Below, in pieces: positions 13,303-60,861 of a stretch of DNA of 64,000 bases. Under the pieces are notes generated by a model that ran no database searches, had not been told where the DNA came from, and worked only from the letters and a program-made list of their open reading frames with translations. The first letter of the stretch is position 1. Every line of letters starts with the position of its first letter. Source of the stretch: Moniliella sp. 'wahieum' (Eukaryota); assembly GCA_003971905.1 (NCBI GenBank), contig RSEE01000007.1:434001-498000 (forward strand), in the 5' to 3' direction. The translations under genes and the position numbers were made by a program.

Positions 13303-15210
13303 TGAGCAATGATCGATGATCGATGATCGATGATCGCCTGAAGCAGGATGTATGATGCCTTGCATGACCGGTGACCGGTGACCGATGAGTAGGACTAGTC
13401 TCTGCTTGGCCGCCGAGTGATCCTGAGGCCGAGGGCGTGACGCGTGACGTGTGATGTGTGACTTGGGATACGCCGCCGTAGCGACGTGGGGCGCGAAGGC
13501 TGCGAAGGGCCAGGCAAGCACAGGCGCACTGTTGCGCATGCCGCCTTTCAGCCTCTGGGCCTGTGCATCATTCATCACCGATCCCCGACACCATTCACGC
13601 ATGCGCCGGCCCAGCCGGGGGGGCAGTCTCTGGCGTGTTGGCGGGCAGCGAGGCTTTGGCAGTGCGCTGGCGCTCGCAGCCAGGCCAGCCCACCCGAGGC
13701 CTGAGGCCCTGAGCGCCTGAGCGCCTGAGCTGAGCGCGGCTTGTTCGAACTGTCCAGATTCTCAAGGGCGACCGCACTGCCGCGGCTCCCACCGCCCCGG
13801 CGGCGCTAGGCGCCCTAGGCCCAATCCTCGACATGAGGCGTGCCGCTTGCAGGGAGCGATAGGCACGGGGGCTGTGCCTGACGTGCCTGACCGCGGGGGC
13901 CGAAGGGGGAAGGGGGGCAAACGAGGCGTTCACGTCGCCTGTGGGCGGCCGAGGCGGGTGTGGCATGGAGCATGGCTGGCAGCGCACGGCACAGCACGGC
14001 GTCCCAGCACAGGACAGGGACAGCGCACGGCCACAGGCACGCCGCGGGACAATGTGCACGGGGCGGGTGCTCAGCCTCAGCGCTGAGGCTGAGCGCTGAG
14101 GCTGAGCACCCGAAGAATGTGTGGGCGTGGCTGGGGTGCAACGTGCAGGGAGCAAGGCAGCAGAGGGGCAGACGGGCGCAGAGCCTGGCATTTATCTGCA
14201 AGCACGTCCGCCCCCGGGCAGCACACCAGCCAGGCAGGGAACCTCTGCGTTTGTGGTTGGGCTCAGCCTGAGCGCTGAGGCGCAGCGCCCAGCCTGAGCG
14301 CTGAGCTCAGCCCAGGCATGGCGCCTGTGCTGGCCGCCCCACCTGCGCTCTCTTGCGCCACGCCCCCCTGTCGCACCCATCGATAATCGATAACCGGTAA
14401 CCGGTACCATCGACAGCGACCTTCTTTTGTCTGGTTGCATACTCCGCCACCGAGAGATATTGAAGCCAGAGCAGGCTGATATCTGAGAGCCTGGGGCAGG
14501 CAAGTGAAGACGTTCTCGGTGTGCGCCGCAGTTCTTTCTTCCGCGCAGTGCCTTCGTCAACGCGTCAACCGATATGGGGCAATTGACCTTGATATCGAGA
14601 GCCCATCGACCGTCGTCGACCATCAATTCCATCGCCAATCGGTCCTAGCGTCATGCATCATGCATCATGCATCATGCCATGTCCATGTCATCGGTCACCG
14701 GCCGGTCACCGGTCATCGATCATTAATCATTAATCATTGCTCAGCGGGTGCTCAGCCGCTCAATCATTAACATCGACATCAGCGGTGCTGGAGCAAGGGG
14801 GCCTGTATAGGGCCCTGTCAGGCCCTGGCCGACGCGGCCGCGGGTGGATGACGTGGACGGGGCAAAAGCCAAGGCAAGCAGAGCAAGCCACGCAAGCCGC
14901 GCGGGTCCCTGAGTACTCAGACTGAGTATAACTGAGTGCAGACCTGTGCACATTGTGCAGACTCCCTTAATTGCTTTGCAATTTGACCACAGGTGACCAG
15001 CTACCGGTTACCTGTAAGCTTGAAGCTTGAAGCTTTCGAGCATTGGAGATTGAGTGTTTGGATGGAATGCTGAGCCGCTGAGAGGCAGACGCCCCATGTT
15101 TGCGGCCAAGAATGTGGTGGTGCAAAAAGCGACGCTCTCCCCGGTTCCATGTTCAGCGAGCGTTCGGCGCGCTCAGCGTGCAACTGAACGTTCAACGTGT
15201 TCAACGTTCA
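13303..15210. repeat. Largest cluster of 7-bp-period TGA/TCA-palindrome arrays
   Basis: (TGATCGA)3 at 13310, (TGACCGG)2 at 13365, ATCGATAATCGATAACCGGTAACCGGT at ~14379, (TCATGCA)3 at 14651, TCATTAATCATTAATCA at ~14720, AAGCTTGAAGCTTGAAGCTT at ~15016, TGAACGTTCA at ~15186. Confidence 0.9.
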
Positions 15211-18200
15211 CCCTCTGCACCCTGCCTTCATTGCATTGGAACGCCTTGGCACGCCTGGTACCTCGATACTGCGCGTATACTTGGGCCGTCGTCGAGATTG
15301 CGCCGGCCGTTGTCCGCGCAGTATGCCAGAATCTTAGAATCTCGCAATAGAAGCAAACTCAGGCCGGCCCTAGACTGGCGGCTGTGGCGGCACTCGCTCG
15401 CTTTCTACGTGTGCTCCGCTGAGCGCTGGCGCTGACACGCGCTGACTACACCCAGGCCTCAATGAAAACACTGGCCAATGATTATACGACCGGTAGGTCG
15501 TGTGGACCAAGAAGGGTCATACATGTCACACTCTGATCTTCTTTCACATTTCAAGCTTCAAGCCCAACGCCAGTATCCCCATCCTCTGGCCTAGTGCCAC
15601 TCCCTTCCATCTATCTCTTCCTCAGTCGGGGTTCGACGTTCGACCCAGCACCTGTCTCATTTCTTCCCTCTACCACTACATGTAAGACTAAGTACTAACG
15701 GCACACTTCTGGGACGTCGGTGGGGAATCACTCGTTTCACTAGTCACTAATCACTCATCACAGGATCTTTGGACACGAGCACTGTGGATCCAACACACCA
15801 CAAGCAGAGTACACTCAGTACTCACACAGAAGGGCGCAATTCTCACAGAAAAAGCAGTATAGGTAACCAACCCACCTACTGTGAATCAGCTTTGACTGCA
15901 TTGCCCACTTGCTCGCGCTGAATCTCATCTTTGTTCGCAATAAGTTTTTGCATCTGTTTGATGTATCCGCGGGGGAAGGAGAGGAAAGGGGGGTGCGTAC
16001 TCAGCCACAGAGTATTACTCAGCGCACTCAGCGCAGACCATTTTTGTGCACACCCCGGCTTATTGTATGCTTCGCCAACTTCATGAAAAGGAGCTGGCGC
16101 CGGGTGAAGCGAAGTGTCATATGACGGGACCCGGGGTATAACAATAAAGGCATCATGTTCATCCGTGGATGTCACATCTCGTTTGAGTCAAAAGTACTGT
16201 GACTATATACTGTGAGGGTATGGCGGGACTCGTGCTCCCGAGTGATGACTAGATGAGCGAGACAATGCAGGTATTCCACTCAGTCGCCCTCTTGCACAGT
16301 GCAACTGAGATGTACATCCTATATATTCTCCCTCTCTTTTACCCTCCCGGAAGTTTTCTCCTCTGCTGTTCCGCGGGGTACTTCCTGCTATGGAAAAGGT
16401 CCTACACTTCTCATAGGCTCATGTGTATGTATTCTGCATTCTTAACTTCGCATTGGCACCATGGACACTAGAATCATCAACAATACAGAGTGTGTGTATA
16501 TATGTGGTCCACAACAGGAGGTGGGCGCAGAAGGGAACGGAGAGGTCACTGGAATGGATAGAGGGGACAGAGGTGAATTGTCGCCTCCTCTCCTCCCCCC
16601 CTTATTTGGCCTTAGAAGGATAAGTCAATCTTTTCTATGACAGTAACAGGGTGTTGGCATGGCTCTCGCTCTCCAAAACCGTGCGCGGAAGAGAGGTAAA
16701 AATGTGCCTAATGGCAATTGAGGTTCGATGTGCTTTCGCATCCTAGATATGCCATTCATATCGATACCGGCCCTCACTTGTTCCTGCCTGAACCCCCTCC
16801 CCTCATCATAAACCGTAACAGTGTAGGGGTGACCATCATCCCTTAGTAAAGCCAATGAACATACACGACGGTTATAGATACACGGAATTAGCGACGAGTA
16901 TGTGCGACCCAATTGAACATGTGCATTAGAATAATGCTATACGGAGGAATGCTACGAAGAACCTGCCGAAGGTTAGGACACATAGGTAGCGTGACTGTGA
17001 TATTTCCCTTCGAAGGGGACAGGGGGTCCTCCTACGGTCTATCAGCAAAACGAAACAAACAAGGGGTAGTTATTTATATGCATCACTTTTGTCTGTGTCT
17101 ATTAGGAGAAGCACAACTGCCAAGAGAAAATTGTAAAGCCAACAAGGATGTAGCTATTATAAAGAGCGATTTGAGGTAAACGGGCTTAGGAACGAAAAGT
17201 AGCTGGTGTCTGTGGGGTATCAAGGGCAAAAACACGCACGCCTGGGTGTGGGAACCAGCATCAAAGTATTAGCCCCAATCCAACCTTGATATTCTCAGCA
17301 ACCAACACAAAAAAGGCCAGGCGATAGTGACCACGATAATGACCCTTACCCTGCAACCATCCATAAACATGTGGTGATGGAGGACCCCAGTGTTTGGAGA
17401 CGGATGTGACAATATGCACTTGCTGTGACCTATGTACTGGACTTATATACGCGAACGCGCTGTAGACGGGAAGGTGAGTATTCTAACCCATTGCAAACAT
17501 CATCTTTCAGCCTCGTCCTTGTAATATAACAGACGAGGAGACCACCGGGCCTACGCCCCGGCCAGCCAGGGCTTCACCCTAGCTTCTTGTGCTGGGCCAC
17601 CTTCGCCACCGTCGCCACCGTCGCCACCGCTCCACGGGTCCACCATTCCACACTGAAGAGAATATCCTCGCACCGTAGCCACGTTCCACATGCTGGAGAG
17701 GCGATATCATATCACCACAACTACAAGGGGGAAATGTGGGATTGTGTGCTGACTTGTGGGCACATTCTCTATCAAACGTCGAAGAGACTACTAAAGGAGT
17801 ACCCCATAATTATTCTTCTTCCGTCTCGCTGAGACTAGTATATGCACTTGCGCTACTCGACCTTTTTGTCTGTCCTCTCACCAACGATGAGAGTCTCCCG
17901 ACAAGGAATATACCTTGCCCGCTGCTTTGACTTGGCATGCTCTTCCCATTATTGTTGTCGGGCCGAGAAGTGCCATTGATGTTCTAGAGCTGTGACTCCG
18001 TGCGGTTTTTCTGCTGGACAGAGGTGGGAACAGAGGAGACGCAGATGCTCGACGCCCTTCCTGACCGTCTTATCTCTCTTCTCCGTGTTTTACGCCTTCA
18101 GTTTATCGCCTTTGACACCTTTCGCCTTTCTTTCATCCTTTTTCTTCACAATCAGCTACTGACGCATATGGCTTCACTCCTCTCCTCCTCTATTGTCTGG

Positions 18201-20841: not shown

Positions 20842-21981
20842 TGATAGAGTCTTGTCCTGACTTTACTGCAACTGCTCTTCCCTTGCCCACACGCTCCGCG
20901 TCACGATCCATGTATCATTTTGACCATGTACCGAATGGTTCCCATCTGACGTACCCTGATGTCCATAGTTGAGGCGCAGAAATAAGAGATTCAGGCTTGA
21001 CGCCTAAGGAGAGGGTGAGTAATTTAGGCCGGCTGGGTACTGGGGGCGAGGCAACGCGTCGGTTGTGAGCGCTTCTGCCATTTGCCGGTGCGCCATGATG
21101 CATGATGCATGATGCATGACCGGTGACCCACGGGCCATCATCGGAAGATGTGGCTGCAATCAGATGGCCGCTACTGACTGAAAGAGTTTGGGCAGCTGAT
21201 CGCGAGCACGGAGGGTGGCCGGTGGCCGAAGTATCGAGCGCAAGCGGTGTGGCTCGTGGAAAGAAAACAGGAGCGGGAAGCGAACACAGGAGCACAGATG
21301 GACAGGCGCAGACGCGTGGACAGAGGACAGCTAGCAAGTACCAGCGTCACGCGTCACAGAAAGTCTGTCCAACAGGGAAGATCATCTCCACGTCACAACA
21401 GAGAGAAGCGCGCCATGTGAATGGAAAGGTCGTTGTGGAGCAGTGCGCATTCTGGCCACGATGCAATGCGTGGCCCCAGCGAAACCCTGCGACGCTGGGT
21501 ACTGCTGGCTTCCGCCCCGAAACTTTCCTGAATCCGGTCTGAATGTTTTGTCCTGCTCCACAGAGCCGAATGCATAATGCCCACGCTCAATTAAGTTTGC
21601 CAATTAAGTTGCGTGGCCGAGCGATGAAGGGTTGACGTCGGGGAGCTCGGGCTGATTGCATCCAGTCCAGAAGGGCAAGCAATAGAAGGACAGAGAAGCC
21701 AGGCCGAGAGATGGAGCTAATTAAGTCGCCGTTTCAGCGGCCAACGGCGCTTCAAAACCCCGGCGGCCATTAGGTATTGGGCAGCACGGAGGCAGTACCC
21801 GGGGTTTACGGTCACCATGGTGGGTGGCGTCATAGCGCCCGTGCTTCCGAACTGTCCCCGTGCCCGGCGACGGGAAAGCCACTCACTCACAGGCCCGTCC
21901 TGCAGCTTGCTGCTATTTAAGGCACGCGAGTTGCCCTGGCAGCCCTTGTCACGCTCCCACCACCTCCATCTGTCTCACACC

Positions 21982-22405
21982 ATGGTCCAGGCTATTGATT
22001 CCTTCGAGTCCTTCCAGACTATCATTAACAGCGGCAAGACCGTTGTCATTGACTTCTGTGCGTATCAACTCCAAGTCGCGACACTGAGGCGGGCAGTGCC
22101 CCTCTCACCCGCTGGTTGGGCACCCGGCACAGAAATACTGACTGAGCTATTATTGCTGTAGGGGCTACATGGTGCGGTCCTTGCAAGATGATCTCGCCCA
22201 TCTTCGAGAAGCTGCAGACCTCGACGCCCAGCGACAAACTCGAGTTCTACAAGGTCGACGTGGATGAGCAGCCTCAGATTGCCGCCACGGCCGGTGTGAC
22301 TGCGATGCCTACTTTCATCTTCTACAAGGATGGCCAGAAGATTGACGAGGTGATCGGTGCTGCTCCCCCAAGCTGAACGCGGCCATCTCCAAGCACTCTG
22401 CTTGA
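21982..22405 (+). CDS. TRX1: Thioredoxin; intron 22058-22161; probable 1-nt assembly deletion near the C-terminus
   Basis: Spliced product [38 protein letters not shown]...KVDVDEQ...AMPTFIFYKDGQK, containing the WCGPC active site. Confidence 0.95.
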
Positions 22406-23650
22406 AAAGGCGAGAGGCGCAAGTTGTACTACAATAACTCGATTCCCTTTGTACCCAGAAGCCGGTCTCGCCTTATCTTAGCTGTGAGTAGTGTGGCCTG
22501 TGGCAGTTGGGACGAATAGGCTGGAGACACCCTTGATCTACTCTGGCTGTTGGGCCTGACCTACCAGGGACAGTGCTGGGCATGAGCGCTGCTGCGTGAT
22601 GATTGTTCAATAGCACTTGGTCATTGATGGACTGCCTCTCAACACTGTCGAGGATGATGCAGATGATGGACTGTAAGCATGCGATAATCCGCATGATCCA
22701 TGCGTGGGAACGTGTTGTTGTAACGTCGTGTGGCACCGGTAGCCCAGGCCAGGTTCATTCCTTCCAATATTCCTTTCTGGAGGGCAGGAATATTCTCTAG
22801 CCTCTGTAGCTCATGTGCAATGCAATACGCCATCAATTGCTTGCTCTCTGCTCTTCAACGCGTCGGGAAAAGGAGCTGAATCGGCTGCTTGTAAAGGCAA
22901 GCGGAATGCGACAGGAATGGGATGGACCAGCGATGCACTCAGGGATGGTTCTTTCCGCTACCACTGTTCATGCAAATGACGATACGCCGATCTATGATGC
23001 CATCAAGATGGCGTTAATGATTGCGCATCTCAGAAGGAACTGAGTTGAACGTCGGTTGAGCGCGGACGGTAACATTATCTTGGTGGACGGAATTCCGCAT
23101 TCCGCAGCGGGAGGCCGCGTCAGGCTTCTTCAATCTTCAAAAGATAGGGCGGAGTTAGCTGGAGCCAGGAGGAGCGGGGGGGGGGGGCAGCAGGGGGCAA
23201 CAAAGCAGCCCTTGCAGGTGGTCACTAGGGTCACCGGTCACTGGCCAGGTGGCTCGTCAGCGCGTCAGCCTGATTCGCTGACATCATGCGACCTGTGACC
23301 GATGACCAGCAGCAGGTACTGCGTGATGGGGCCGGACACCGGTAGGGTTAGCGCAGCGAAGAAGAGATTCGGCACGAGGGCAGTGCTAGGGGTTTAGGGC
23401 GCAGGGCCGGGTGGAGCCCAGTTCGAAATAGCCGGGGAGCGGCAGCAGACGGGGAGCGAGGCGTAGCGAGGCCCGGACAGACAAAGAGCGCGCGGTGGCC
23501 TGTGGTAGCCAGACACTCGCGCCGCGCTGGATCGGATTGGGTGCCGCACCAGCGCAGCAGCCAGCGGCCTGGGGAGAAGGAAGCACAGGCCGGCCTGCTG
23601 CTGCCCCACTCCGGCGCCGCGCAGCTTATAAGGCTCTGCGCTCGTTGCCC

Positions 23651-25001: not shown

Positions 25002-27152
25002 GCAACCCTTTCTGACGTGGGAGTCCCCCGATGGGGAATGCCTTCCATTGGAGTGACAGGGACGGCGAGGGAGGGTGTCATACGGTTCTGGACACTCTAA
25101 GCGTTGCGTGCTTTGACGCGACCTTGACCCCCGCCCCTTCCCCCCACACACATTCAAAATGCCTAACGATGAGATGGCGATCTCGTTGATGAACCTTGGA
25201 CCTTTTTTCTGGGCGTGTTTTGCCTGTACTATCTGCCTCTCAAATAAGACTTCAATGCTACATTCCTCGATTTTATTGTGTTCTACATATGGCTGAAGGA
25301 GAATGGCGGGTGTGATTTTGAGGAGAGGCTATGAGAAGGGCAGGGCCCTTTTGTAGGCGTGTGTACGTAGAGAGGAGTAGAGGAAACGCCCCAGGCGAAT
25401 AAAAGAAAATCATGCATCACCGGTCACCGGTCACCCAGCATCACCTATCATACACAGGATATGGCATGGTGGCACCGCAGAGGGTGCCGTAGGCGAGCAG
25501 TCGCTCCAGCCTCGTGCAGTGGAGAAGAGGCGTGGAGACAGGGTGAAGCTTGAAGGCCGCTGAGATCTGGGATGGGATCAGACGTGCCAACGATCTGGTT
25601 CTATTGTAGCATCCCTTTAAGAAGAACGCCAAGCCTAGGCGGCCTCTCGGGCCTCAGTACCGCAGTGCTCTCGGGGGAATGAGCTCGTTCTGAACTGAAC
25701 CAGACAGAGTACCAACCGATGGTGGAACGTTGAACGCAACACTATTGGGAAAATGGATCCGACGGGCACTTTTCGTAATCGATAATCGATCGATAATCGA
25801 TAACACGTGTCTCGGGGTGGCTCTCAACCTCCGGACCGAGAGGCTGTGGAGGGAAACGCTGAGGAGAGAGGCTTTCGCCGCCCGAAACAGCATGGCCGCA
25901 GGAGTGGGGAGACAGGTGGCACGTACCCCTCAGCCACACACCCTACGTCACGCTGATCGATAGGCAGGGGAAACGCAGCACGGTGACCTCACTTTTATAC
26001 CGTGTAATCCCGCCCTATCGAAGACTATCCCCCACCATCGCACCGTGTCTTCTTTTTTCTGTTCTGACGCATGATGACCACGCGTGACGAGCTTCCGCCG
26101 GTGCATAGTGTGCATATGTGTGGTGCGGCGTGCGCGTTGGGTGGGCCTTGGGTAACTGAGTGGCACGTAGAAAGCTCAGGCTGAGCGCATAGCCATTCGA
26201 TGACCCATTTATCTCCATGTCCAGCTTCCAGGACCTCGTCCAGGCACCGTCGACCGGAGACCCTGCCCCAGGTACCTCGTCCAGACGCAGGCACCGGCCC
26301 CAGCACTCTGCCAGTGTGGGTGGTGTGTGGCGCCCAACATGTGTGCGCTTGGCAGAAGAACTCAGAGGCTCAGCAAGGCGCTCAGCCTGAGCGCTCAACG
26401 CTCCTGAATTGCCTTCCTGCTCGGGTCGCTCTCCAGGTTTCAGGCACTCCAGCCTCCGTTGGGACCTCGGGGCCCACGCGTCTCACCAGTATCATGCTGC
26501 TTCTCGACGCTCGCAGGTCTCTGATCGACAAGATGCATGTGCATAGGCATGAGGTCATGCCTGTGAGTGCCTGAGACTGATGATCGATGACTGATGCAAA
26601 AGACAACGTGAGACTAATAAGATCCAAGTCCCTATATTCTCCCAAGGGCACTTACTAGCTACCGCAGAAGACTGCACTTTTGTGCCCGCTTTTGTTTTTG
26701 CGGCTCATTACATGGATGTGGTATAACTTACAGTATCTTCGGCCGTTGTGCGCACATGTGTATCCGATCACAAAACAATACGTCAATCATTTTAACCATT
26801 CATCTCAGCCGCAACGAGCAGCAAGCCCCTCTCCCCGTCCAAGTCCGACACTCATGCATCTTCTGCCTCTCCGGAAACCACACCACAGACACCACAGATG
26901 CCCCGCGAAGGAAACGGTGCCCAGGTACCTCGCTTAACGAACAGCCAGGTCATGTCGTCGATCTTTCCCTATCCTTCCAAGCAAATTTCTACACAGGTGG
27001 GGCAGCTCTATGGTAATCTCTCCCTCTCCTTATTGATTCAAAAAGGTATATATATAGCCTCCCCCTCTGTGGCTTTAACCTTTTTGATCCCCTCTTTTAT
27101 CGCCTGCGCCGCATATCACTCAAGGCCCGCGCAGTACAGTACGCGGCCTGGG

Positions 27153-33734: not shown

Positions 33735-34196
33735 TTTGTGGCGTGTTGGTGGTGGTGGGGGCAATGCTCGATGCTGGCCCGGATCCATTCCTGTCTGTAA
33801 GGAGCTGTGGCGGTGTTGGGGTGTTGGGCCTACTTTAGACTTCTCACGCGTTTCATGTGATGCATTGCTACCAGAGTGGCCTCTGGGGCTGAAATATTGA
33901 ATGTGGATGATGCATGACGCGTGACGCGTGACGTGCTGCTGGTTGCCTCCTCGATCGGCTGTGGGTCGGCCAGCAGGGCAGGAACTGAGTGTCGAGGATT
34001 CATATTCATCGATCATTGATCGATGATCAATCCATCGACCCTCCTGCGGGCGATTGTATTTTCCAGGGGCCAGCGCGATCAACGTAACGTCACACCAGCC
34101 TCATCAACTACCCTCGAGCCCCGCCCGTTTTCCCACCCACATTCGTCTCCTCGTCCACCTCCTCGCCTCTGCCGGCCAGCCCGACCCAAGCCAGCC

Positions 34197-37217: not shown

Positions 37218-37315
37218 CGTTCCATGTTGGGCTCGAACCAACGACCTCCCGATGTCCGAAGACATAGGCCGTCTCTTTAACAGTCGGACGCTCTAGCCAA
37301 CTGAGCTAATGGAAC
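37218..37315 (-). tRNA. tRNA-Asn: tRNA-Asn(GUU) with a 24-nt intron (37254-37277)
   Basis: Reverse complement folds as GTTCCAT acceptor, GCTC-AGTTGGCTA-GAGC D-arm, TCCGA-CTGTTA[intron]A-TCGGG anticodon arm, GTTGG-TTCGAGC-CCAAC T-arm and ATGGAAC-G. A T6 Pol III terminator lies at 37211-37216. Confidence 0.95.
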
Positions 37316-38740
37316 AAGTTACTTTCAAGAGTTCATCGGTGACATTCGCCTAGCCGGGCGGGAGAGTTCTGTTTGTAATGTGCCGCGGAACAGGGAACTC
37401 TCCGACCAGCGCCAGGCAATTTACAGGATAGCTAGCTGGCCAGTCGATCGGTCACAGAGAGCGGGAACGAGGTTACGAGTGAAGGGAAGAGCGGAGTGGG
37501 GGCGAAGAGACAGGACACCAACTGCAGAGAAGGACAGGAAAGGTGGGCGCGCGCGCAGCGCGAGCTATGGCATGAACTGTGGCCCTAGTGCCCCTGAGCC
37601 ATGACATGCCCTGCAGACATTGTTTGAAGACTTGTAGCTCACCATTCAAGTTTTGTCCGAAGGTGCTTTGCAGCTCATCTGAGCTCAGCCTGAGCGCTCA
37701 GCCTGAGCGCTCAGCAGATCGCACCCAAGTCGGAGACTCTATTATAGCCGCCTGATCCCGTGGGTTCTCTGTGTAAACAATGTTCCGAAGCCGAACTCGA
37801 GCACTCATGGAACGATGCCTCAAGCTGCGGCCCCACCCCATCCTGGTGCTTCGTAGGGCATCCTAGTAGGCTAATCGTGAGCGACAAACTATCTTCTCCT
37901 GAGGCCAAGCAAAATTATGCAAAAACGTTGGGGGATCTCTGACAGAATGCCCCCGCAATATATCCAACACCCACAGCCCTTTGGGGGTCTGCCCTGCTGG
38001 CCTCTGTGCCACGATGCATCACTGGCATGGCTAGTGACTCGGCGTAGTAAGTTTCGTAATGACTATAGCGAGGGAGGGCGGCGGATGGCAATGTGCACGA
38101 GAAAAGAGGAGCTTGGGCCACACTGTAGGTGCTGCCAACAGATTTGCCAGTTGGTGCTGGACATTGGTGCGGTCGTGTAGCAACCCCACCAACGAACCGC
38201 TGCTGGCTGACGGGTGTGTGACGGGTGGGCATGGCGCCAGTGGCGAGCGGCGGCGGGCAGCATCAGCCGAGTTGAACGTTCGTTGAACTCAGTCCAACGT
38301 TCAAGTTGAAGGCGGAGTCGGACTGCAATTTGAAACAAGCCCATCCACCGCCGCCGACGACAGGCGACGGCTGGCTGGCGTCCAGAAGCGGCGAGGCGGA
38401 TCGGATGCATGCATGATGCCTGGGGCTGATGCCTGATGCCTGATGCAATGCCTTGGGGTGCGTCACCGGTCACGCATCTGCCTGTGCGTACTGGTACTGA
38501 CGTACTGAGTACGCAACTGTCGAGTACTCGTACTGACACTGCTGACTGACGTACAGATGCACCAATGTCGTATGGGCCTGAGCCTGTCTGAGTTCCAGGC
38601 TTCCTCCGCCAACACAGAATCACACGCGCTCCGCCACATCCTTCTCCTCCGTCCCCACCGCCATCGGCTGCCATCCTCCCATCGCCCATCCCCATCTCCT
38701 CGGGCGCCCTCCCGCCCCCGCCCCCGCCCCGCCCACGACC

Positions 38741-41709
38741 ATGCCCAGCATGGCCCACAGCCCAGCATCCGGCATGAAAATCGGTGTCGGTCTCTCCCCT
38801 GCCCCCAATGGCGCTGTCTCCAGGACCCCTGCTCCGCCTCCGCCTCCTCCCATTGCCCCTTCCTCTGCATCCGACCCGCCCTCCTTCACCCCTCACCCCG
38901 GCACGTGGGGGCCTGAAGCCGAGACCCTCGACTTGTACGTCTGGGACTACTGCACTCGCCGTGGCTACCATTCTGCCGCCCGTGCCTTGGCCCAGGACGC
39001 AGGTCTTGACCCCCACCCGTCCATACCGCTCAAAACCCCCCAGGGTCTTCTGTTTGAGTACGTGCACTGCCTGGCCTCCGCGCACGCAACACTGACATGC
39101 TCGCCGCACCAGATACTGGTCTCTTTTGGGATCTCTTCAACGCCCGAAGCGGACGCGGCAGTCCCAGCGCCCGGGCCTACCAGCAGGCACTAGATGAACG
39201 CACATATGCTGGCTACCAGAGATCGCTCCAACGGTACAGATCCGATGCGTCAACCTCCACCTCGACCGCCCCTGAGCAATTGCATTTGATGGCATCGTCC
39301 GCGGACACGCGACCACTGGTACTGTTCCTGCTCAAGCGGGAGCAGGCTGGGTCTCCTCTATGCCTGTTACCGAACCCCAACTTGGGGGCGTATACCAGGG
39401 ATCTCATCAGTCTGCTAATGGGCCGAATCAGGTGTCGGTCTCCCAAAACGGTGTGGCGGGCCCCATGCCGATTTCTAACAGCCAATCTAGCGGCTCTGGC
39501 CGCCATCCAGTCCCCGTCCAGTCCGCAGGCCAAACCACGCTATTGCAGTCGCCCTTATCGGCTGTCCCTGACTCTTCTCTTCATCTGTCAGGCGGTCCTA
39601 CCGCCTCCGGGACACCGGCCGCTCGTAACACCACTTCCCTCTCCTCATCGCCATATGGAACGACCCAAACTGGACATCCAGCTACGCAAACATCATTGGG
39701 CGCCTCCTCTAACCCAGTGGAGCCCAGCGTGTTGAGCCATCGACCATTGAATGGCGCTGGATCAGGCCCAGGCGGGAATGGACCGACGCCGGGGGACCGA
39801 GGGCAGTCAAGGGTCTGACATGCCTTCTCCTCTCATGGCCACAATGCGGGTGATTGATGGCATGACCATTCCTGAGTTTACTGTCTGGTTGCGCCAACTG
39901 TCTCCCACCCAACAAAACTCGTTGCTGATGTCTTGCGCTCAAGCCCGGGGAATGACCCCAGCTCAAGTCCAGCGTCTCGACCCGGACAACCGTGTGGGAT
40001 TAATCGCATCACTGGGGAGCCAAAACGTCGTTCGCTTCCTCCACATGGGTCCTGGTTCAGTCGATCTACCAGGGACGGCGACAACTACGATGAGGCCTCC
40101 CAGTGAAGCTCATTCCCAGGGGACAAGCCAAGGCCCCGCTCAGTTCTACGCTGAGCTGCGCGCCCAGACCCAGGCCGAGGCGCAGGCGCGGGCCCATTCT
40201 GATGCTCAAGCTCAAGCTCAGGCGCAGCAGGCTCAGGCTCAGGCGCAGGCTCAGGCTCAAGCCCAGGCCCAGGCCCAGGCACAGGCACAGGCAGAAGCAC
40301 AGGCTCAAGCACAAGCACAAGCACAAGCCCAAGCTCAAGCTCAGGCTCAGGCTCAGGCGCAGGCTCAGGCCCAAGCCCAGCTCAAGCCCAAGCTCAGGCG
40401 CAGGCTCAGGCGCAGGCTCAGCAGGCGCAGGCTCAGCAGGCCCAAGCACAGGCTCAAGCACAGGCCCAAGCGCAGGCCCAAGCGCAGGCCAATCCCGAGC
40501 CCGAGCCCAAGCACAAGCACAAGCTCAAGCTCAAGCACAAGCCCAAGCTCAGGCTCAAGCCCAAGCTCAGGCTCAAGCTCAGGCGCAGCAGGCTCAGGCT
40601 CAGGCTCAGACCCAAGCTCAGGCTCAACAATCCCAGTCCCAAGCCCAGCAGGCGGCTCACTTGAACGCACTTCAACGTGGGGTGCCTTTGGGGCCACCTC
40701 CCCTCAGAGTGGCGAGCCCTATCACAGATGGATACCGACCCGCCACAGCTGGATCAATTCAAGGTCCTCCGCGGCCTTTGCCTCCAGGTCGCTCGATCAG
40801 TGTATCGGGCCCCTTGGATGGCTCGATCGCCCTCCCGAGAATTCGGCGGGGGGCTTGGCCCCGTTGCGGCAAGTCAGTGCTCAAGGGGAGTTGGCACAGC
40901 ACTCCCGCACCCAACTGTTGACCCAAGTCCAACGTTTGCAGGCCCAGATCAAAGCGGAGATGACTAAGGCCCAAGCTGCCTCATCTGAGCAGCAGGCCCA
41001 GCAAGCTCAGATGGCGGTGCACATGTGTAACCAACAGCTGCAACGCATCCGCGCTCTACTCGACAAGCCGATGGGGGAGGCGTTTCAAGTCCACAAGCCT
41101 CCCAACCGTCATCTCACGCATCCAGTCCTGGCGTCGGCCCGGGCATGCCCAGTTCCCAGATGAGCCCGACAGTGCAGATGAATTACCCCGGTTCGTCATC
41201 CTTACTCTCCCGCAGGTGGTCTGCCCCGCGGGGAGGGCGGAGCGCGGGGACGCAAGCCTTCTACCCGAGGTCGAAGAGCATCCAAAACGCCGCGTACCCC
41301 GCGCACAGTCAACCTACCCTAAAGACCGATTCGCCTGTTCCGGGCTCGGCGAGTTCGCATCGAGACCCGCACTCCCAGATTGAAGACCCATCCTCGCTGG
41401 TTCCCGCTCTCCAACCCCATCTGTCACACGACCTGTCCCACGTATCGCGCCCGCACCCTTCCCCATACATGTCTGAGCGCATGCCGGACCCGATGCCCAT
41501 TACTAGTGCCCCCCCGGACCCTGAAATGGGGAATGGGGCCGGAGTCTCCTCAGAGCAGCAGACCGACGTCAGGGTCTGGCCCAGGGGCTACCCTTTCCCT
41601 TCCGGCTACCGTACCTGAGGGAGACGAGGGAGAAAATTTCGAAGCCATGTTCGGCGGGTATTTTGACTTTGACAATCCCGAACTAGCCAATTTGGGCTCG
41701 GTCTTCTAA
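38741..41709 (+). CDS. LisH/LUFS-domain transcriptional regulator (Flo8/Som1/SSDP-like) with a long (QA)n tract; intron 39058-39112; frameshifted
   Basis: [26 protein letters not shown]...[20 protein letters not shown] matches LisH plus the PxGFLxEWWxxFWD motif. Acidic/aromatic C-terminal end [12 protein letters not shown]. Confidence 0.8.
40170..40650 (+). repeat. Coding (Gln-Ala)n repeat
   Basis: Alternating CAG/CAA and GCN codons over about 480 nt. Confidence 0.9.
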
Positions 41710-46109: not shown

Positions 46110-46853
46110 TGCATCCGCAGCTGTGGGGGTGGTAGGGTCGATGGGGGTGGTGAAGCGGCCGCTCGTCCAGCTCGTCAACGGCTCCTGGCTGTCGCTGTGG
46201 GTGCCACAGGGTTGACGTATTTTCCGGGTGGCGGAACTGCGCTTTTTGAAATGTCACAGCCTTAACAGGCCTGAGGCGCTGAGCCTCCATGGCTTGCACC
46301 TTCAAGCTTCAAGCTTCAAGCTTCACGTCAAATTGACCTCACTGAGAGTCTGCCGACCAGCTTGTGCGCTTGAGCGCCTCACACGCATCTCCTGCTCTGC
46401 GAGGATGGTCGCATGGACGACGCCTGCTGCTACACCACCGCCACCATTCCCGGTGCTAACCTTGAAGCCTCAACCAAAGCGTTGCGTGCACTCTTAGACC
46501 TTACTGCTTCTCACCGTCACACGCATCGTGCATCATGCATCATGCATCACACCAGTGGCATCGCCTTCAACCAATCAGCTTGCTCCCACCAACAACCGAC
46601 GTTGGACGTCGGATCCAGGAGCTGGTGCGGTGGGCATAGATGGCATGATGCATGACTGTAGCAGCTGTCAAAGCGGGACGCAGCCAAGCTCAAGCTGCAC
46701 AAGCTGTGGTGATTTGGGGGCTGGCTGGGACCGCGGATTACATAACCCAGCCTTCACGTCAGCTTCGCAACCGCCACGTTGTCAGGTCCGGGGAGTCGCA
46801 GTCCTCCATCTGGAACTGCCCCATCACCTTTGCCTACACCCTCTGCCTGCACG

Positions 46854-47863: not shown

Positions 47864-48158
47864 GAGAGGCGGTAGGCGCCATATTACAATTGGTACAATC
47901 AAAAATACTTCAGTCTGTCGAATGAAGAGTGGCTCTGGCTAGCTGGGCGAGTTGTAATAGTACATTCAATGTGGGTACTGGCAGAGCTTATCAGATCCAT
48001 TGGGTAGTGGTCCGGCATCGCCCTAAGGCTTTTTCCGTGGTGCTCGCGCATTATAGTAGCTTTTGTCTGTTTGCGGTTCCTTGACCCTGTTTGGACGCAG
48101 AGTCCCCTTTCGGCGGAAGTTACCCAGCGAATCCTCACCTGATGAGACCTGGAGTCCA

Positions 48159-48410
48159 GATGGTCCTCGAGGGTGATGCAATCACACTAGTGGTGGTGGT
48201 GGTGGTGGTGGTGGTGGTGGTGGCGGCGGCGGTCTAAGCCAACCAGCAACGGCTGCAGAGGAACATCAAGCAGCGAGTCTCGCCACCAGGGGCTAAGCTG
48301 CGAAACAAGGAAAAACAGGAGAGAAAAACAGCGGAACTCCCAAGCCTGAGGAGGGACTGAAGGGACATTGACCAAAGCACGAGCCACCTGATGGCTCAAC
48401 ATTACCTTCT
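48159..48410. repeat. Dispersed diverged repeat, copy A (contains a (GTG)n tract)
   Basis: 24-nt identity GATGGTCCTCGAGGGTGATGCAAT with 56735-56758, and continuing patchy similarity. Confidence 0.8.
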
Positions 48411-49345
48411 CTCAATCAATCGATGGGATCAAGGAAACTCTTCTTTTAGTCGCCTAGTTGTTTCCCTCTCCCACTTCCTGTCTTTAACCCTCCAGCTCTC
48501 CAGTTTCCAGCGTTTCACCCCTCCAACATCCAGTCCCCTATAATAGTTGTTTGAATCCTAATTGATCATGATCATCCGATAGTGCAGTCCTACTCTGTCC
48601 CACCCCCTCACCTTTCCTATATGTCCCACTCTAATCCAGTTCCTGCTTCAGCTCCACAATCCCCCACAGTCCAGTTTCCATTCCCGTGCCGGCATAATAG
48701 TCCAGTTTGCCTCTCTCTTCCAATCAAGTGTACGAGCATCGTCCATTGACGTGTTGCCACTTACTGCCCACAAAAGCCGTGGATGTTAACCCCCCAGCGT
48801 GGGTCCGGCCACGAGAGGGGCTTGATCGCCTGCCGTTTTCTACGCTCTTCAACGACCTAATTGAACAGTTCTGGAACGGGCCCGGCATACATCGACCATC
48901 AGCCTACTGTCGTACATGCCAATAGTGTCGCCACATCTGAGGTCTGGTATTTAAGTCTCCGTCTGAGACCCCGCCAACCGATTTTTGGTGCGGGGCAAAC
49001 CAGACCTGGATGAGCTGGACGCCTGAGCCTGAAGCCAAGGGGGTGGCCTTCACCGGGAAGCCCCTCACATGTCACAGTAGTCACTGCGTAGCAACGATAG
49101 CAAGGGCTGACACATACTGTCATGCATGAGATCGATGAGATCTAAGAAGATCAATCACGTGATGAGTGAGCCCCACTCCGGGCCGAGTAACCCTATTGTA
49201 GGAATGTAGCCCGGTGCCTGTTGTCTTCCAGCTACTTGCCGCAGCAACCCTGCCGTGGCTATGCCCGGTATCCAATGCGCTTGCTCTGGGCCGCGAGTGT
49301 GCCGCCCGGAAGGCCTCTAGCCAGCCCACCGACTCATTATTCGAC

Positions 49346-55320: not shown

Positions 55321-56734
55321 TGGGGTGGAGGTGATGGTGGAGAGACGAGGAAAGATCTGATGTCTGATGCGATTGCGGCGAACGCTCGCGTAGCCATTAG
55401 TCGGTCGGATCGGCGGTGCTTTTGTGCCTTGCGGTAGCCGAGCCAGCCAACCATATGCCGGCACTGCGCCCGCGTCCACCAGGACAGCCCTGGCACGCCT
55501 CCTTGAAGCTGATCGGCGTTGTACGTCCACTCGGCCCAAACGCCTGTACGAGCTTCGCTCCGCATGCTGCCTGTGTAGAACCCCCTGCACACGGATGCAT
55601 TGAGGCGTAAGTACGTAAATGGGGCCCAAAGCCTGAGGCCTCACCGGCCTCACTGGTCACGGGTCACCGGTCACCTGAGGGCGTTCGCTGGGGCCCCGGC
55701 CGCAATGGCAATGATGCGTGGTGCGCATGATGTAGGATGGGTGACTAGTTGCTAGCGAGCGCTGGCTGAGTATTGAATTGAATACTGTCCCAGTGCCTGT
55801 TGGCGTGGGCAAACGCGCCAACGCCTGCTGTAAGCGCAAGCGCTAAGCCTTGCTCAGGCGCCCAGGCGCTCAGGCGCTCAGGGCTAACGCCAGGGCCCAC
55901 CTTGCCTGCCCCGCATCCTGCAGCTGATAAAACAACGGGCGCTGTGCCATTCGCTCCTTCGGCTAGGGTAGGATCGATAAGGGGGTGCGAGGTGCCAGGA
56001 GCTAACCATGGGAGCCACAACGCACTGGCACACATGAGTATTTCGTACTTGCGATTAGTTTATCCGCCGAGAGCGCCTCAGCGCCTCAGCCCTCAGCGGT
56101 TGAGCAGGGCTCAAGTTGAGCTCAGCGGGGTTCGGGCGCTCAGGCGCTCAGGCCTCAGGCTCACCGGTGAGCTCACCCGCTCACATGCTCTCAGGCCTGA
56201 GAGAAGCCACGTCAAAACCAGGATATATATCCCCCGTCCACTCTTGCAAAGGCGTTGTCTGCTCGATGATCGACAATCATCGAAATGATCATCGGTCATC
56301 GATCGTCATGCATCATGCATCAACCATCTAATCATTGCAGACTAGTGAGTAATGATTCGCATGCATGGCTACTGCTTGCCACCGCCATTAGCGCTAAGGC
56401 TTAGCCCTCCGGAGGAGCGTGGCAGAGTGCGGCAGAGCGTGGCTTGCCATCGCGCCAGTGTCATCTGCGAGTATATGCACTGCCGAGATGCTCGCACCGC
56501 TCGCAACTTACACCCAAGCGCCCAAAAGCTCTATCAAGTTCAAGGCCAAACCGCCCTTCCAATTTGAAACGAACCACTTCCCTCCATGGTAAACATGAAG
56601 TCTCGCCAAGCCTTTGCTTACATTTGACCCAGGTATCCTTAGCCAGTCGCTAATTTCCCTTCCCTGCTCCTGCTGTGATGCATGATGGCTGACGAGATCT
56701 TATTTGCGTCCTGCGGCCTGAGGGCCTGAGGCCT

Positions 56735-56970
56735 GATGGTCCTCGAGGGTGATGCAATAATGGCACTAGTGGTGGTGGAGACAAGTCACTAGTCAGCCAG
56801 CAACGCCTCAAGAGGGACATTAAGCAGCCAGACGCCGCCAGCGACTATCAGGTTGTCGAACAAGGAAAACAGAAACGAGAACGCATCGGAACTCCGATTA
56901 GGCCGAAGAAGAGACAGAGCGGACGCTTTGGCGCCAAAAAAACGAGCCACCCGCGGTGGCTCGACAAAGG
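56735..56970. repeat. Dispersed diverged repeat, copy B
   Basis: Same orientation as 48159-48410. Shared blocks: CACTAGTGGTGGTGG, CCAGCAACG, AACAAGGAAAA, CGGAACTCC, ACGAGCCACC...TGGCTC. Confidence 0.8.
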
Positions 56971-59900: not shown

Positions 59901-60861
59901 TGTCTTATTTGCTCTGAGATCTGATGCAAAAAGCTGGTTTACTATTGAATAATAGTAATTACCAGCAAAAAGCAACATGTAACAAGGGGCTTGCTGGGTT
60001 TGTGAGAAGTTGGAGTCTTTGACTTCCACAGCCAGCGCAGACAGTATAACATTTTATAGACATATCGTTTTGGTCTGGATTAACGGACCTGAGAGTATAG
60101 CCCGTGCAGCAGAGTAAGAAAGGTGGAGACGGGATCCGACACATGTGGCAAAAGGGATATTGAACTGTATGAGACATACACAAAACAGCAATGGGGGAAC
60201 CAACATATAAAACAGGTTTTTGGAGCATATATATGCCCCCGTATACGGAAATAAAGCTTCTGGGGAGGAAAGCTGGGGTGAAGCTTGAAGCTTGACTTGA
60301 AGCTTGAAGCTTGAAGCCACAACTGTGATGGTAAAACGCGGCGTGTGGCGGTAACCGGTAAGTACTAAGTGAAGATTGAAGAGGCCTCATGCCGAAGAGG
60401 CCTCAGGCATGAGGCCTGTGTGCATGTGAAGATTGAAGAAACAGGTTAAAAAAAGGACAAATACTGTGGCATGTGGGGATATTGGCACAGAGGTTCATAA
60501 CTAAGTACTAATCATTTAATGAGTAGGTTCATGAGATCTGAGATGAGTACGTGATGAGTCTCCATCAGGTCCATGCGGGGCCCTCCCGTGTCACATTCCG
60601 AGCCGTTCAGTTCTTCTCCCCGCACAACCATTGGCATTGACCCCCGTTGCGCGACCGATAGAGCGTCCCCACCGCTTCCGTGAGAGCGCGTGAGCATACG
60701 AGCCCCCGGTACCGGTGGCTGAGCCCGGAGACCGGAGAACCCCTGACGCCCTGAGCCTTGACGCCCTGTTATATAGATACTTTTATAGTAGTACTGTCGT
60801 TATCTCTGTCTCGTTTGCGATCCGTCCACCACTCGCCCAACTTTTCTTTACCAACTTCATC

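Follow-up and report, generated by a model that had tools for sequence, protein, structure and literature searches.

Flank-templated palindromic heptamer arrays in a smut-related fungus: probable stacked excision scars of a hairpin-forming transposon

Two reports describe hairpin formation at the flanks and palindromic footprints of P nucleotides for hAT, Transib, RAG and the MULE Muta1, along with hairpin opening of the Artemis/Pso2 type (PMC5499845, PMC5873905). According to the second of these, insertions in Ac/Ds footprints are centred on the complement of the element-adjacent base (PMC5873905). The hAT7 families of the Pucciniales (rust fungi) generate 7-base target duplications, and for CACTA/Transib-type lineages the consulted part of the same source gives duplications of 2–5 bases (PMC12730594). 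In Ustilago maydis, a set of 10-bp repeats has been interpreted as possible transposon footprints (PMC4081816). As far as the accessible text of these papers goes, a T-N-A-centred 7-base duplication is the stated hallmark of none of the superfamilies that they describe, and a literature search, which reached few subscription journals, returned no description of T-N-A-centred palindromic heptamer arrays. Here, arrays of this kind are described from one stretch of 64,000 nt (hereafter the window), to which all counts and positions refer.

The gene content of the window was assessed by Pfam scan. Long open frames encode an XRN 5'-3' exonuclease, an RSN1/CSC1-type channel, a uricase and Upf2 (MIF4G), and further genes encode OST3, ribosomal protein L26, a peroxiredoxin, Rot1, a bZIP factor and a C2H2 factor. 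The nearest named relatives of the uricase are from Ustilaginomycotina (Tilletiaria anomala, 59%; Thecaphora and Pseudozyma flocculosa, 60%), and one further protein, from an assembly, is 83% identical to it. Typical eukaryotic proteins and these relatives of the uricase identify the window as nuclear DNA of a smut-related (Ustilaginomycotina) basidiomycete with few introns. A metagenome scan for the orthologous locus with its neighbouring uricase gave eight loci, the best of them 43% identical and none orthologous. Contigs of one public run (0.05 share) cover positions 21981–22865 and three pieces of 37–55 bases in the XRN1-like gene, and overlap none of the arrays.

Each repeat unit joins one spacer base to a 6-base palindrome, A-NNNN-T; equivalently, it consists of T-N-A and a 4-base palindrome, hereafter the core (Table 1). 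In mixed arrays the core changes along the array. Four such arrays had been quoted in the initial annotation, and all were present exactly as written: three TGATGCA, TGACCGG and TGACC at 21096–21128; TCATGCA, two TCACCGG and TCACC at 25410–25435; TGATGCA, two TGACGCG and TGACGTG at 33908–33935; and two ATCGATA followed by two ACCGGTA at 14379–14406. The third of these lies between the divergent XRN1-like and RSN1/CSC1-like genes. The pattern was compared with chance in 200 dinucleotide-preserving shuffles. A-NNNN-T palindromes 7 bases apart formed 24 pairs with the same core (shuffle mean 0.04, maximum 1) and 8 pairs with different cores (shuffle mean 0.42, maximum 3). Spacings of 7 and 14 gave 8 and 11 different-core pairs, while those of 5, 6, 8 and 9 gave 0, 0, 0 and 1, so that within the window the junctions do keep a 7-nt register, as the initial annotation had supposed, and their spacing is not random. 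The spacer base was unchanged across seven of the eight different-core junctions, the exception being at 49131. Hexamer palindromes with outer C, G or T showed no spacing-7 peak in the window. Among perfect period-7 runs, 29 of 47 of at least 14 bases consisted of T-N-A plus a 4-base palindrome in some rotation, as did 63 of 172 of at least 12 bases; by simple arithmetic, at most 448 of the 16384 heptamers (2.7%) fit this rule. Combined, these results show that phase-keeping core switching is real and far beyond chance. Among 89 palindromes of 10 bases, those starting with T-N-A were the top class (12), but did not stand out clearly from the other classes, with 10, 9 and 8.

Table 1. Positions and make-up of the arrays and scars in the window; flanks are said to fit when they equal the adjoining half-core.
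Feature	Position	Composition	Outer flanks
Mixed array, main one of the initial annotation	21094–21128	7-mers CATGATG (three), CATGACC (hybrid), GGTGACC; cores TGCA (three), then CCGG; TGA throughout	CA left, CC right; both fit
Mixed array	25408–25435	AATCATG, CATCACC (hybrid), GGTCACC (two); cores TGCA, then CCGG (two); TCA throughout	Right CC fits; left AA, predicted CA, one base off
Mixed array	33906–33935	GATGATG, CATGACG (hybrid), CGTGACG (two), then decayed CGTG	Right CG fits; left GA, predicted CA, one base off
Mixed array	14379–14406	GATAATC, GATAACC (hybrid), GGTAACC, then GGTAC; cores TCGA, then CCGG; TAA throughout	Both fit
+11 scar and three-core array	14693–14743	GGTCACC-GGCC-GGTCACC, then cores CCGG, TCGA, TTAA, TTAA, then TTGC; TCA throughout; 14706–14743 is a mixed array additional to the four of the initial annotation	Both fit (14706–14743)
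Mixed array, additional to the four of the initial annotation	60349–60370 (array 60352–60368)	Cores CCGG, then GTAC; TAA throughout	Both fit
+11 scar	25776–25803	GATAATC-GATC-GATAATC (at 25781); both 7-mer copies kept, inverted flank bases between	
Three single-core arrays	13309–13461	TGATCGA (4 copies); TGACCGG (2.9 copies); TGACGCG decaying to TGACGTG and TGATGTG	
Single-core array	14651–14677	TCATGCA (3.9 copies)	
8-base array	13699–13730	(GCCTGAGC)n, read as 7-mer CCTGAGC plus one inverted flank base	
8-base arrays of the (GCCTGAGC)n class	55852–55882, 56072–56098, 56135–56160	7-mer plus one inverted flank base	
13-base array	37683–37715	GCTCAGC plus CTGAGC, read as 7-mer plus six inverted flank bases	
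Single-core arrays upstream of the OST3-like gene	46300–46325, 46529–46549	TCAAGCT (3.7 copies); TCATGCA (3 copies)	
Two TGAAGCT arrays	60279–60317	Joined by half core TGA-CT-TGA; 2-base phase slip	

The relation between cores and neighbouring bases was analyzed in blocks of the form TNA-palindrome-TNA with the same N. T-N-A accounts for 55 such blocks, whereas the 15 remaining X-N-Y frames give 1–13 apiece. The dinucleotide on one or both sides is identical to the adjoining half-core in 48 of the T-N-A blocks, a match expected by chance in about 12% by our estimate; the remaining 7 match on neither flank. The 40 single-core blocks comprised 17 with a left-only match, 13 with a right-only match, 5 with both and 5 with neither. 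A one-sided match has the form ab-TNA to ab-TNA-b'a'-ab-TNA, which is a 5-base direct repeat plus two inverted bases and gives 12 bases of period 7; runs of 12 bases with two inverted bases rule out a plain 7-base tandem duplication for the one-sided blocks. In line with this, the two registers predicted for such runs account for the starts of 18 of the 26 rule-obeying runs of exactly 12 bases (binomial P = 2e-5 against 2/7). Between ab-TNA repeats, the two filler bases were b'a' in 47 cases, another dinucleotide in 16 and TN' in none; the mirror counts were 45, 18 and 1. A symmetric, Transib-like 5-base duplication, for which the predicted filler is TN', was discarded on these counts. An ordinary micro- or minisatellite born by slippage or plain duplication was likewise rejected, 29 of the 47 longer runs obeying the 2.7% rule and 30 of the 40 single-core blocks being a 5-base direct repeat with two inverted bases. 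In mixed arrays the right flank fits in 6 of 6 and both outer flanks fit in 4 of 6. Each 4-base core is thus built afresh, by inverted copying of the dinucleotide beside a T-N-A.

The dependence of cores on their flanks bears on whether the palindromes could instead derive from transposon ends. According to that explanation, T-N-A would be a 3-base duplication in the style of PIF/Harbinger or CACTA, two terminal bases from each inverted end would form the 4-base palindrome, and different cores would represent different families. The arithmetic (3 + 4 = 7) agrees with it, as does the behaviour of TGCA, a jointly commonest core (14 of 79 links) and the one left unaccounted for by the flanks, at 25410, 33908 and 56306. 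However, 48 of 55 blocks have cores that follow their flanks, and the window contains 14 of the 16 palindromic cores that can be formed, so that many families would be needed; the scars with two full 7-mers described below, moreover, indicate a duplicated unit of 7 bases and not of 3. This origin is therefore very improbable, and Tc1/mariner or 3-base-duplication footprints, whose added bases come from the element ends regardless of the flanks, disagree with the same flank match and core diversity.

Selection on cis-regulatory arrays was weighed against the same data. Here the arrays would act in promoters, either as structural elements or by binding dimeric proteins, with dyad symmetry and spacing under selection. 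The T-N-A blocks all lie outside Pfam-supported coding sequence, which occupies 21.4% of the window (0 of 55 blocks within it, P = 1.7e-6), and many are located between genes; some array units presumably resemble half-sites of bZIP-type factors. On the other side, nothing is constant beyond T-N-A, the cores used being as diverse as noted above, arrays decay by point mutation, and neighbouring bases predict the cores, which selection for binding sites would not produce. We regard selected regulatory arrays as highly unlikely, and an array of protein-binding sites with a conserved recognition sequence was rejected, T-N-A alone being constant.

Core switches were then compared with ordinary sequence decay. 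Adjoining in-phase cores comprised 17 identical pairs and 7 palindrome-to-palindrome switches, 4 of them differing by one paired change and 3 by two; adjoining in-phase non-palindromic variants were one base away in 6 cases, two in 5 and three in 2. The 4 one-pair changes compare with a rough neutral expectation of 0.12, and this excess indicates that the switches are a separate, templated class and that the non-palindromic intermediates are ordinary decay. The initial annotation had held that slippage of one unit cannot generate mixed arrays, which the flank-templated cores bear out. It had also pictured passage from one core to another by several coordinated substitutions, and on this point the data disagree, cores being copied afresh from the flanks of T-N-A (48 of 55). 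Its suggestion that register and core symmetry are "constrained or templated" is upheld for templating, by the flank matches and by the starting registers (18 of 26), and is not supported for constraint by selection. As to the depletion of non-palindromic intermediates, which it had offered as a check, single-substitution units do exist (the 6 pairs above), alongside 7 palindromic switches of which the one-pair class exceeds the rough neutral expectation.

Evidence for the length of the duplicated unit came from T-N-A-centred 7-mers repeated directly at spacings of 8–13 bases, with a filler of 1–6 bases between the two copies. Of 39 such repeats, 21 had a filler made of inverted copies of the 7-mer ends (P-type filler), as compared with 37 of 435 at 15 control centres. 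When spacing 8, at which chance is high, was set aside, P-type fillers amounted to 11 of 28 against 11 of 382 in controls; at spacing 8 itself they were 10 of 11, and at spacing 13 they were 3 of 7 against 0 of 41 in the 15 control centres. In the two +11 scars, at 14693 and 25781, each flank contributes inverted bases (2+2 filler), and no scar of this both-flank type was found among the 15 control centres. Four +9 scars lie at 15190, 16017, 22653 and 50384. Two features expected of P-nucleotide scars are thus present together: the target duplication is kept on both sides of the joint, as the filler counts at spacings 8–13 and the +11 scars show, and the inserted bases are inverted flank ends, as the flank matches, the run registers and the 2-base fillers (47 against 16) show. 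These repeats carry the signature of a 7-base target duplication with P nucleotides.

A second family, with 8- or 13-base units built on CTGAG/CTCAG, was observed at 13699–13730, 55852–55882, 56072–56098, 56135–56160, 14079–14107 and 37683–37715. Since it fits a T-N-A-centred 7-mer plus one or six inverted flank bases, it may result from the same process with other hairpin-opening positions. The half-core joint between the two TGAAGCT arrays at 60279–60317 may be an alternative joint product.

Taken together, the arrays are probably stacked excision scars that accumulated at one T-N-A site; the responsible element would be a cut-and-paste DNA transposon that duplicates a 7-base target and lies outside the window. 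The data show flank templating, 7-mer direct repeats separated by inverted flank bases, restriction to T-N-A and absence of the blocks from Pfam-supported coding sequence; the hairpin chemistry, the transposon as agent and array growth by repeated hits are proposals. In the proposed mechanism, the element would insert at a 7-base target xy-T-N-A-zw and duplicate it, and excision would seal each flank as a hairpin. If the host then opened each hairpin about 2 bases from its tip, the left flank would carry the overhang zw-w'z' and the right flank y'x'-xy, both of 4 bases and self-complementary. With an asymmetric target these overhangs could not pair, and one would be kept and the other clipped; the resulting site, xy-TNA-[y'x'xy or zww'z']-TNA-zw, would be 7 bases longer than the original. 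Its new core would be palindromic by construction and would inherit T-N-A, its middle base and the 7-base phase; register and spacer base would be kept automatically because T-N-A lies inside the duplicated 7-mer. The original hybrid site would persist beside a new perfect odd palindrome, so that later hits could add cores on either side of the seed, those on the left templated by its left half and those on the right by its right half, and so produce a mixed array. Extra copies might also arise through ordinary slippage of the new repeat, and a point mutation in one half-core would create a new hybrid site, from which the next hit would yield a new palindromic core that mimics a paired substitution.

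In these terms, a mixed array can be read as the product of one asymmetric seed whose left half was palindromised towards the left and whose right half towards the right. The seed CATGACC at 21115–21121 would fully explain the array at 21094–21128, and the arrays at 14379 (seed GATAACC) and 60352 would fit the single-seed scheme likewise; the three-core array at 14706 would require extra point mutations. A rough model with 2680 TNA sites and 55 blocks predicts 0.55 independent double hits, against 6 mixed arrays seen (P = 2.5e-5), and this excess implies that seeds are hot spots or that scars attract further hits. For array growth past two copies, repeated hits and ordinary slippage leave indistinguishable products; repeated hits would be the route preferred by the excision-scar reading.

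Whole-unit growth of the arrays and the existence of single-base decay variants are both compatible with hairpin-prone replication slippage combined with intrastrand template switching (quasi-palindrome correction), by which heptamers with a palindromic core would be favoured in expansion and mutations in one half would be copied to the other by fold-back. Four of five arrays fold somewhat better than shuffles (z = -2.14, -1.77, -2.54 and -1.37), but the array at 21094–21128 folds no better (z = +0.28), and all fold energies are small, -4.3 to -7.3 kcal/mol. Such weak single-strand folds count against a structural role of the arrays as well as against their origin by hairpin-driven slippage. 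Furthermore, the first event at a naive site would have only a 2-base stem and a 3-base loop to act on, and this explanation accounts neither for the restriction to T-N-A, nor for the one-sided 12-base events (30 of 40 single-core blocks), nor for the +8 to +13 scars with two full 7-mers. Slippage of this kind is accordingly quite unlikely as the source of the arrays.

The agent of the proposed breaks was sought within the window. No transposase Pfam family, and no hAT domain, was found in 220 open frames (8 + 62 + 150, the last being those of the 187 frames of 90–149 aa that lie from position 13448 onwards). No resident element, defined as inverted ends (12 of 14 matching) within 8 kb flanked by any perfect 7-base duplication, was present, and the repeat finder gave only the arrays and coding low-complexity repeats, with no dispersed transposon-like repeats. 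This agrees with an alternative in which the same break-repair chemistry operates at T-N-A with no mobile DNA inserted, the agent being a host-encoded or domesticated nuclease or another break process; the re-hitting of seeds far above random targeting is also what a site-directed host activity might do. Against it, direct repeats of a full 7-mer separated by inverted flank bases call for two things, a staggered gap of 7 bases that is filled on both sides and, after it, two hairpinned ends. We know of no nuclease that makes both, and insertion followed by excision does give them. A host nuclease or other break process is an unlikely agent.

The middle base of the blocks speaks against the excision-scar reading. 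Among the 55 blocks it was G in 24, C in 22, A in 9 and T in none; on this strand there are thus 9 TAA blocks and no TTA block, although the two triplets occur equally often in the window as a whole (TAA 380, TTA 374). Under strand symmetry the two kinds of block should be equally frequent, so that this asymmetry counts against stacked excision scars. The TAA blocks, at 98, 3786, 14384, 15689, 25776, 25794, 50465, 60352 and 60502, represent about six loci.

The proposed scars were compared with the systems introduced above. With the footprints of RAG/Transib, MULE Muta1 and hAT Ac/Ds, as described in the accessible portions of the sources, they share a target duplication at the empty site, inverted copies of flank ends at the joint and an implied opening of hairpins by the host. 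They differ from them in that they iterate at one site into tandem arrays, in that the commonest product retains a single 4-base overhang, the other being lost, for an exact gain of 7, and in that the target is a T-N-A-centred 7-mer. The usual hAT duplication is of 8 bases, with consensus nTnnnnAn. A hAT footprint of this form was rejected, the window unit having 7 bases, of which the third is T and the fifth A. A hAT footprint in the sense of an insertion centred on one complemented base was rejected too: unlike those reported for Ac/Ds in the consulted part of PMC5873905, the window cores are even palindromes whose axis falls between two bases (zw|w'z'). Because of this even symmetry, the window scars are closer to the RAG/Transib or MULE type than to hAT.

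The hAT7 families are basidiomycete DNA transposons of a superfamily known to hairpin its flanks, and they share a 7-base duplication with the window scars. They differ in that hAT7 belongs to a rust-fungal lineage and in that hAT-type footprints would be odd palindromes, whereas the window cores are even. The Ustilago maydis repeats are likewise short, intergenic, interpreted as transposon relics and found in a transposon-poor genome of a related fungal group, but have a period of 10 instead of 7. Compound (two-motif) microsatellites also have two motifs of equal length abutting in one array; in the window, by contrast, the motifs come from the left and right halves of a single asymmetric seed, each made palindromic, have T-N-A and the middle base in common, and do not originate by slippage and point mutation.

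If the excision-scar reading holds, short tandem repeats would be born and diversified by repeated visits of a transposon and not by slippage, and the sequence of a repeat would be predictable from the two bases beside T-N-A. The hybrid 7-mer in each mixed array would preserve the original target site and would give direct information on target preference and on the opening and joining of hairpinned ends in this fungus. The scars would also bear witness to an element once active in a genome with otherwise few apparent transposons, as has been suggested for the U. maydis 10-bp repeats. Scars between genes would shift promoter spacing by gains of 7 bases.

A stronger proposal is that a hairpin-forming transposase with a T-N-A-centred 7-base target is active now, or was recently, and sufficiently so to create tandem repeats from nothing; this is put forward tentatively and is more doubtful than the scar reading itself. 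If true, the process would feed itself. The perfect odd palindrome left by a scar would yield two opened hairpins with identical self-complementary overhangs, and each scar would double the number of target sites, so that scars would both attract further hits and heal them neatly. This would constitute a new, sequence-predictable route to the birth of microsatellites, preferentially beside genes.

Some further features of the window were recorded. Positions 16001–18000 have a G+C content of 0.49, against 0.52–0.69 in the rest of the window, and this stretch may be a long spacer or a decayed insertion. The interval 14.2–19.8 kb contains no frame of at least 150 aa, and the 12 scanned frames of 90–149 aa there had no Pfam match. 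A tRNA was identified by Rfam on the minus strand at 37218–37315 and was not called by ARAGORN in its bacterial setting; it probably has an intron, since it spans 98 bases against a model of 71 positions. A long imperfect (GCTCAA/GCTCAG)n repeat of about 69 hexamer copies, at 40204–40627, lies within a 470-aa open frame without Pfam match (39751–41163) and is a coding low-complexity tract. Finally, a 60-base non-coding sequence occurs in two copies 8.6 kb apart, at 48143–48202 and 56719–56778, which are 78% alike.
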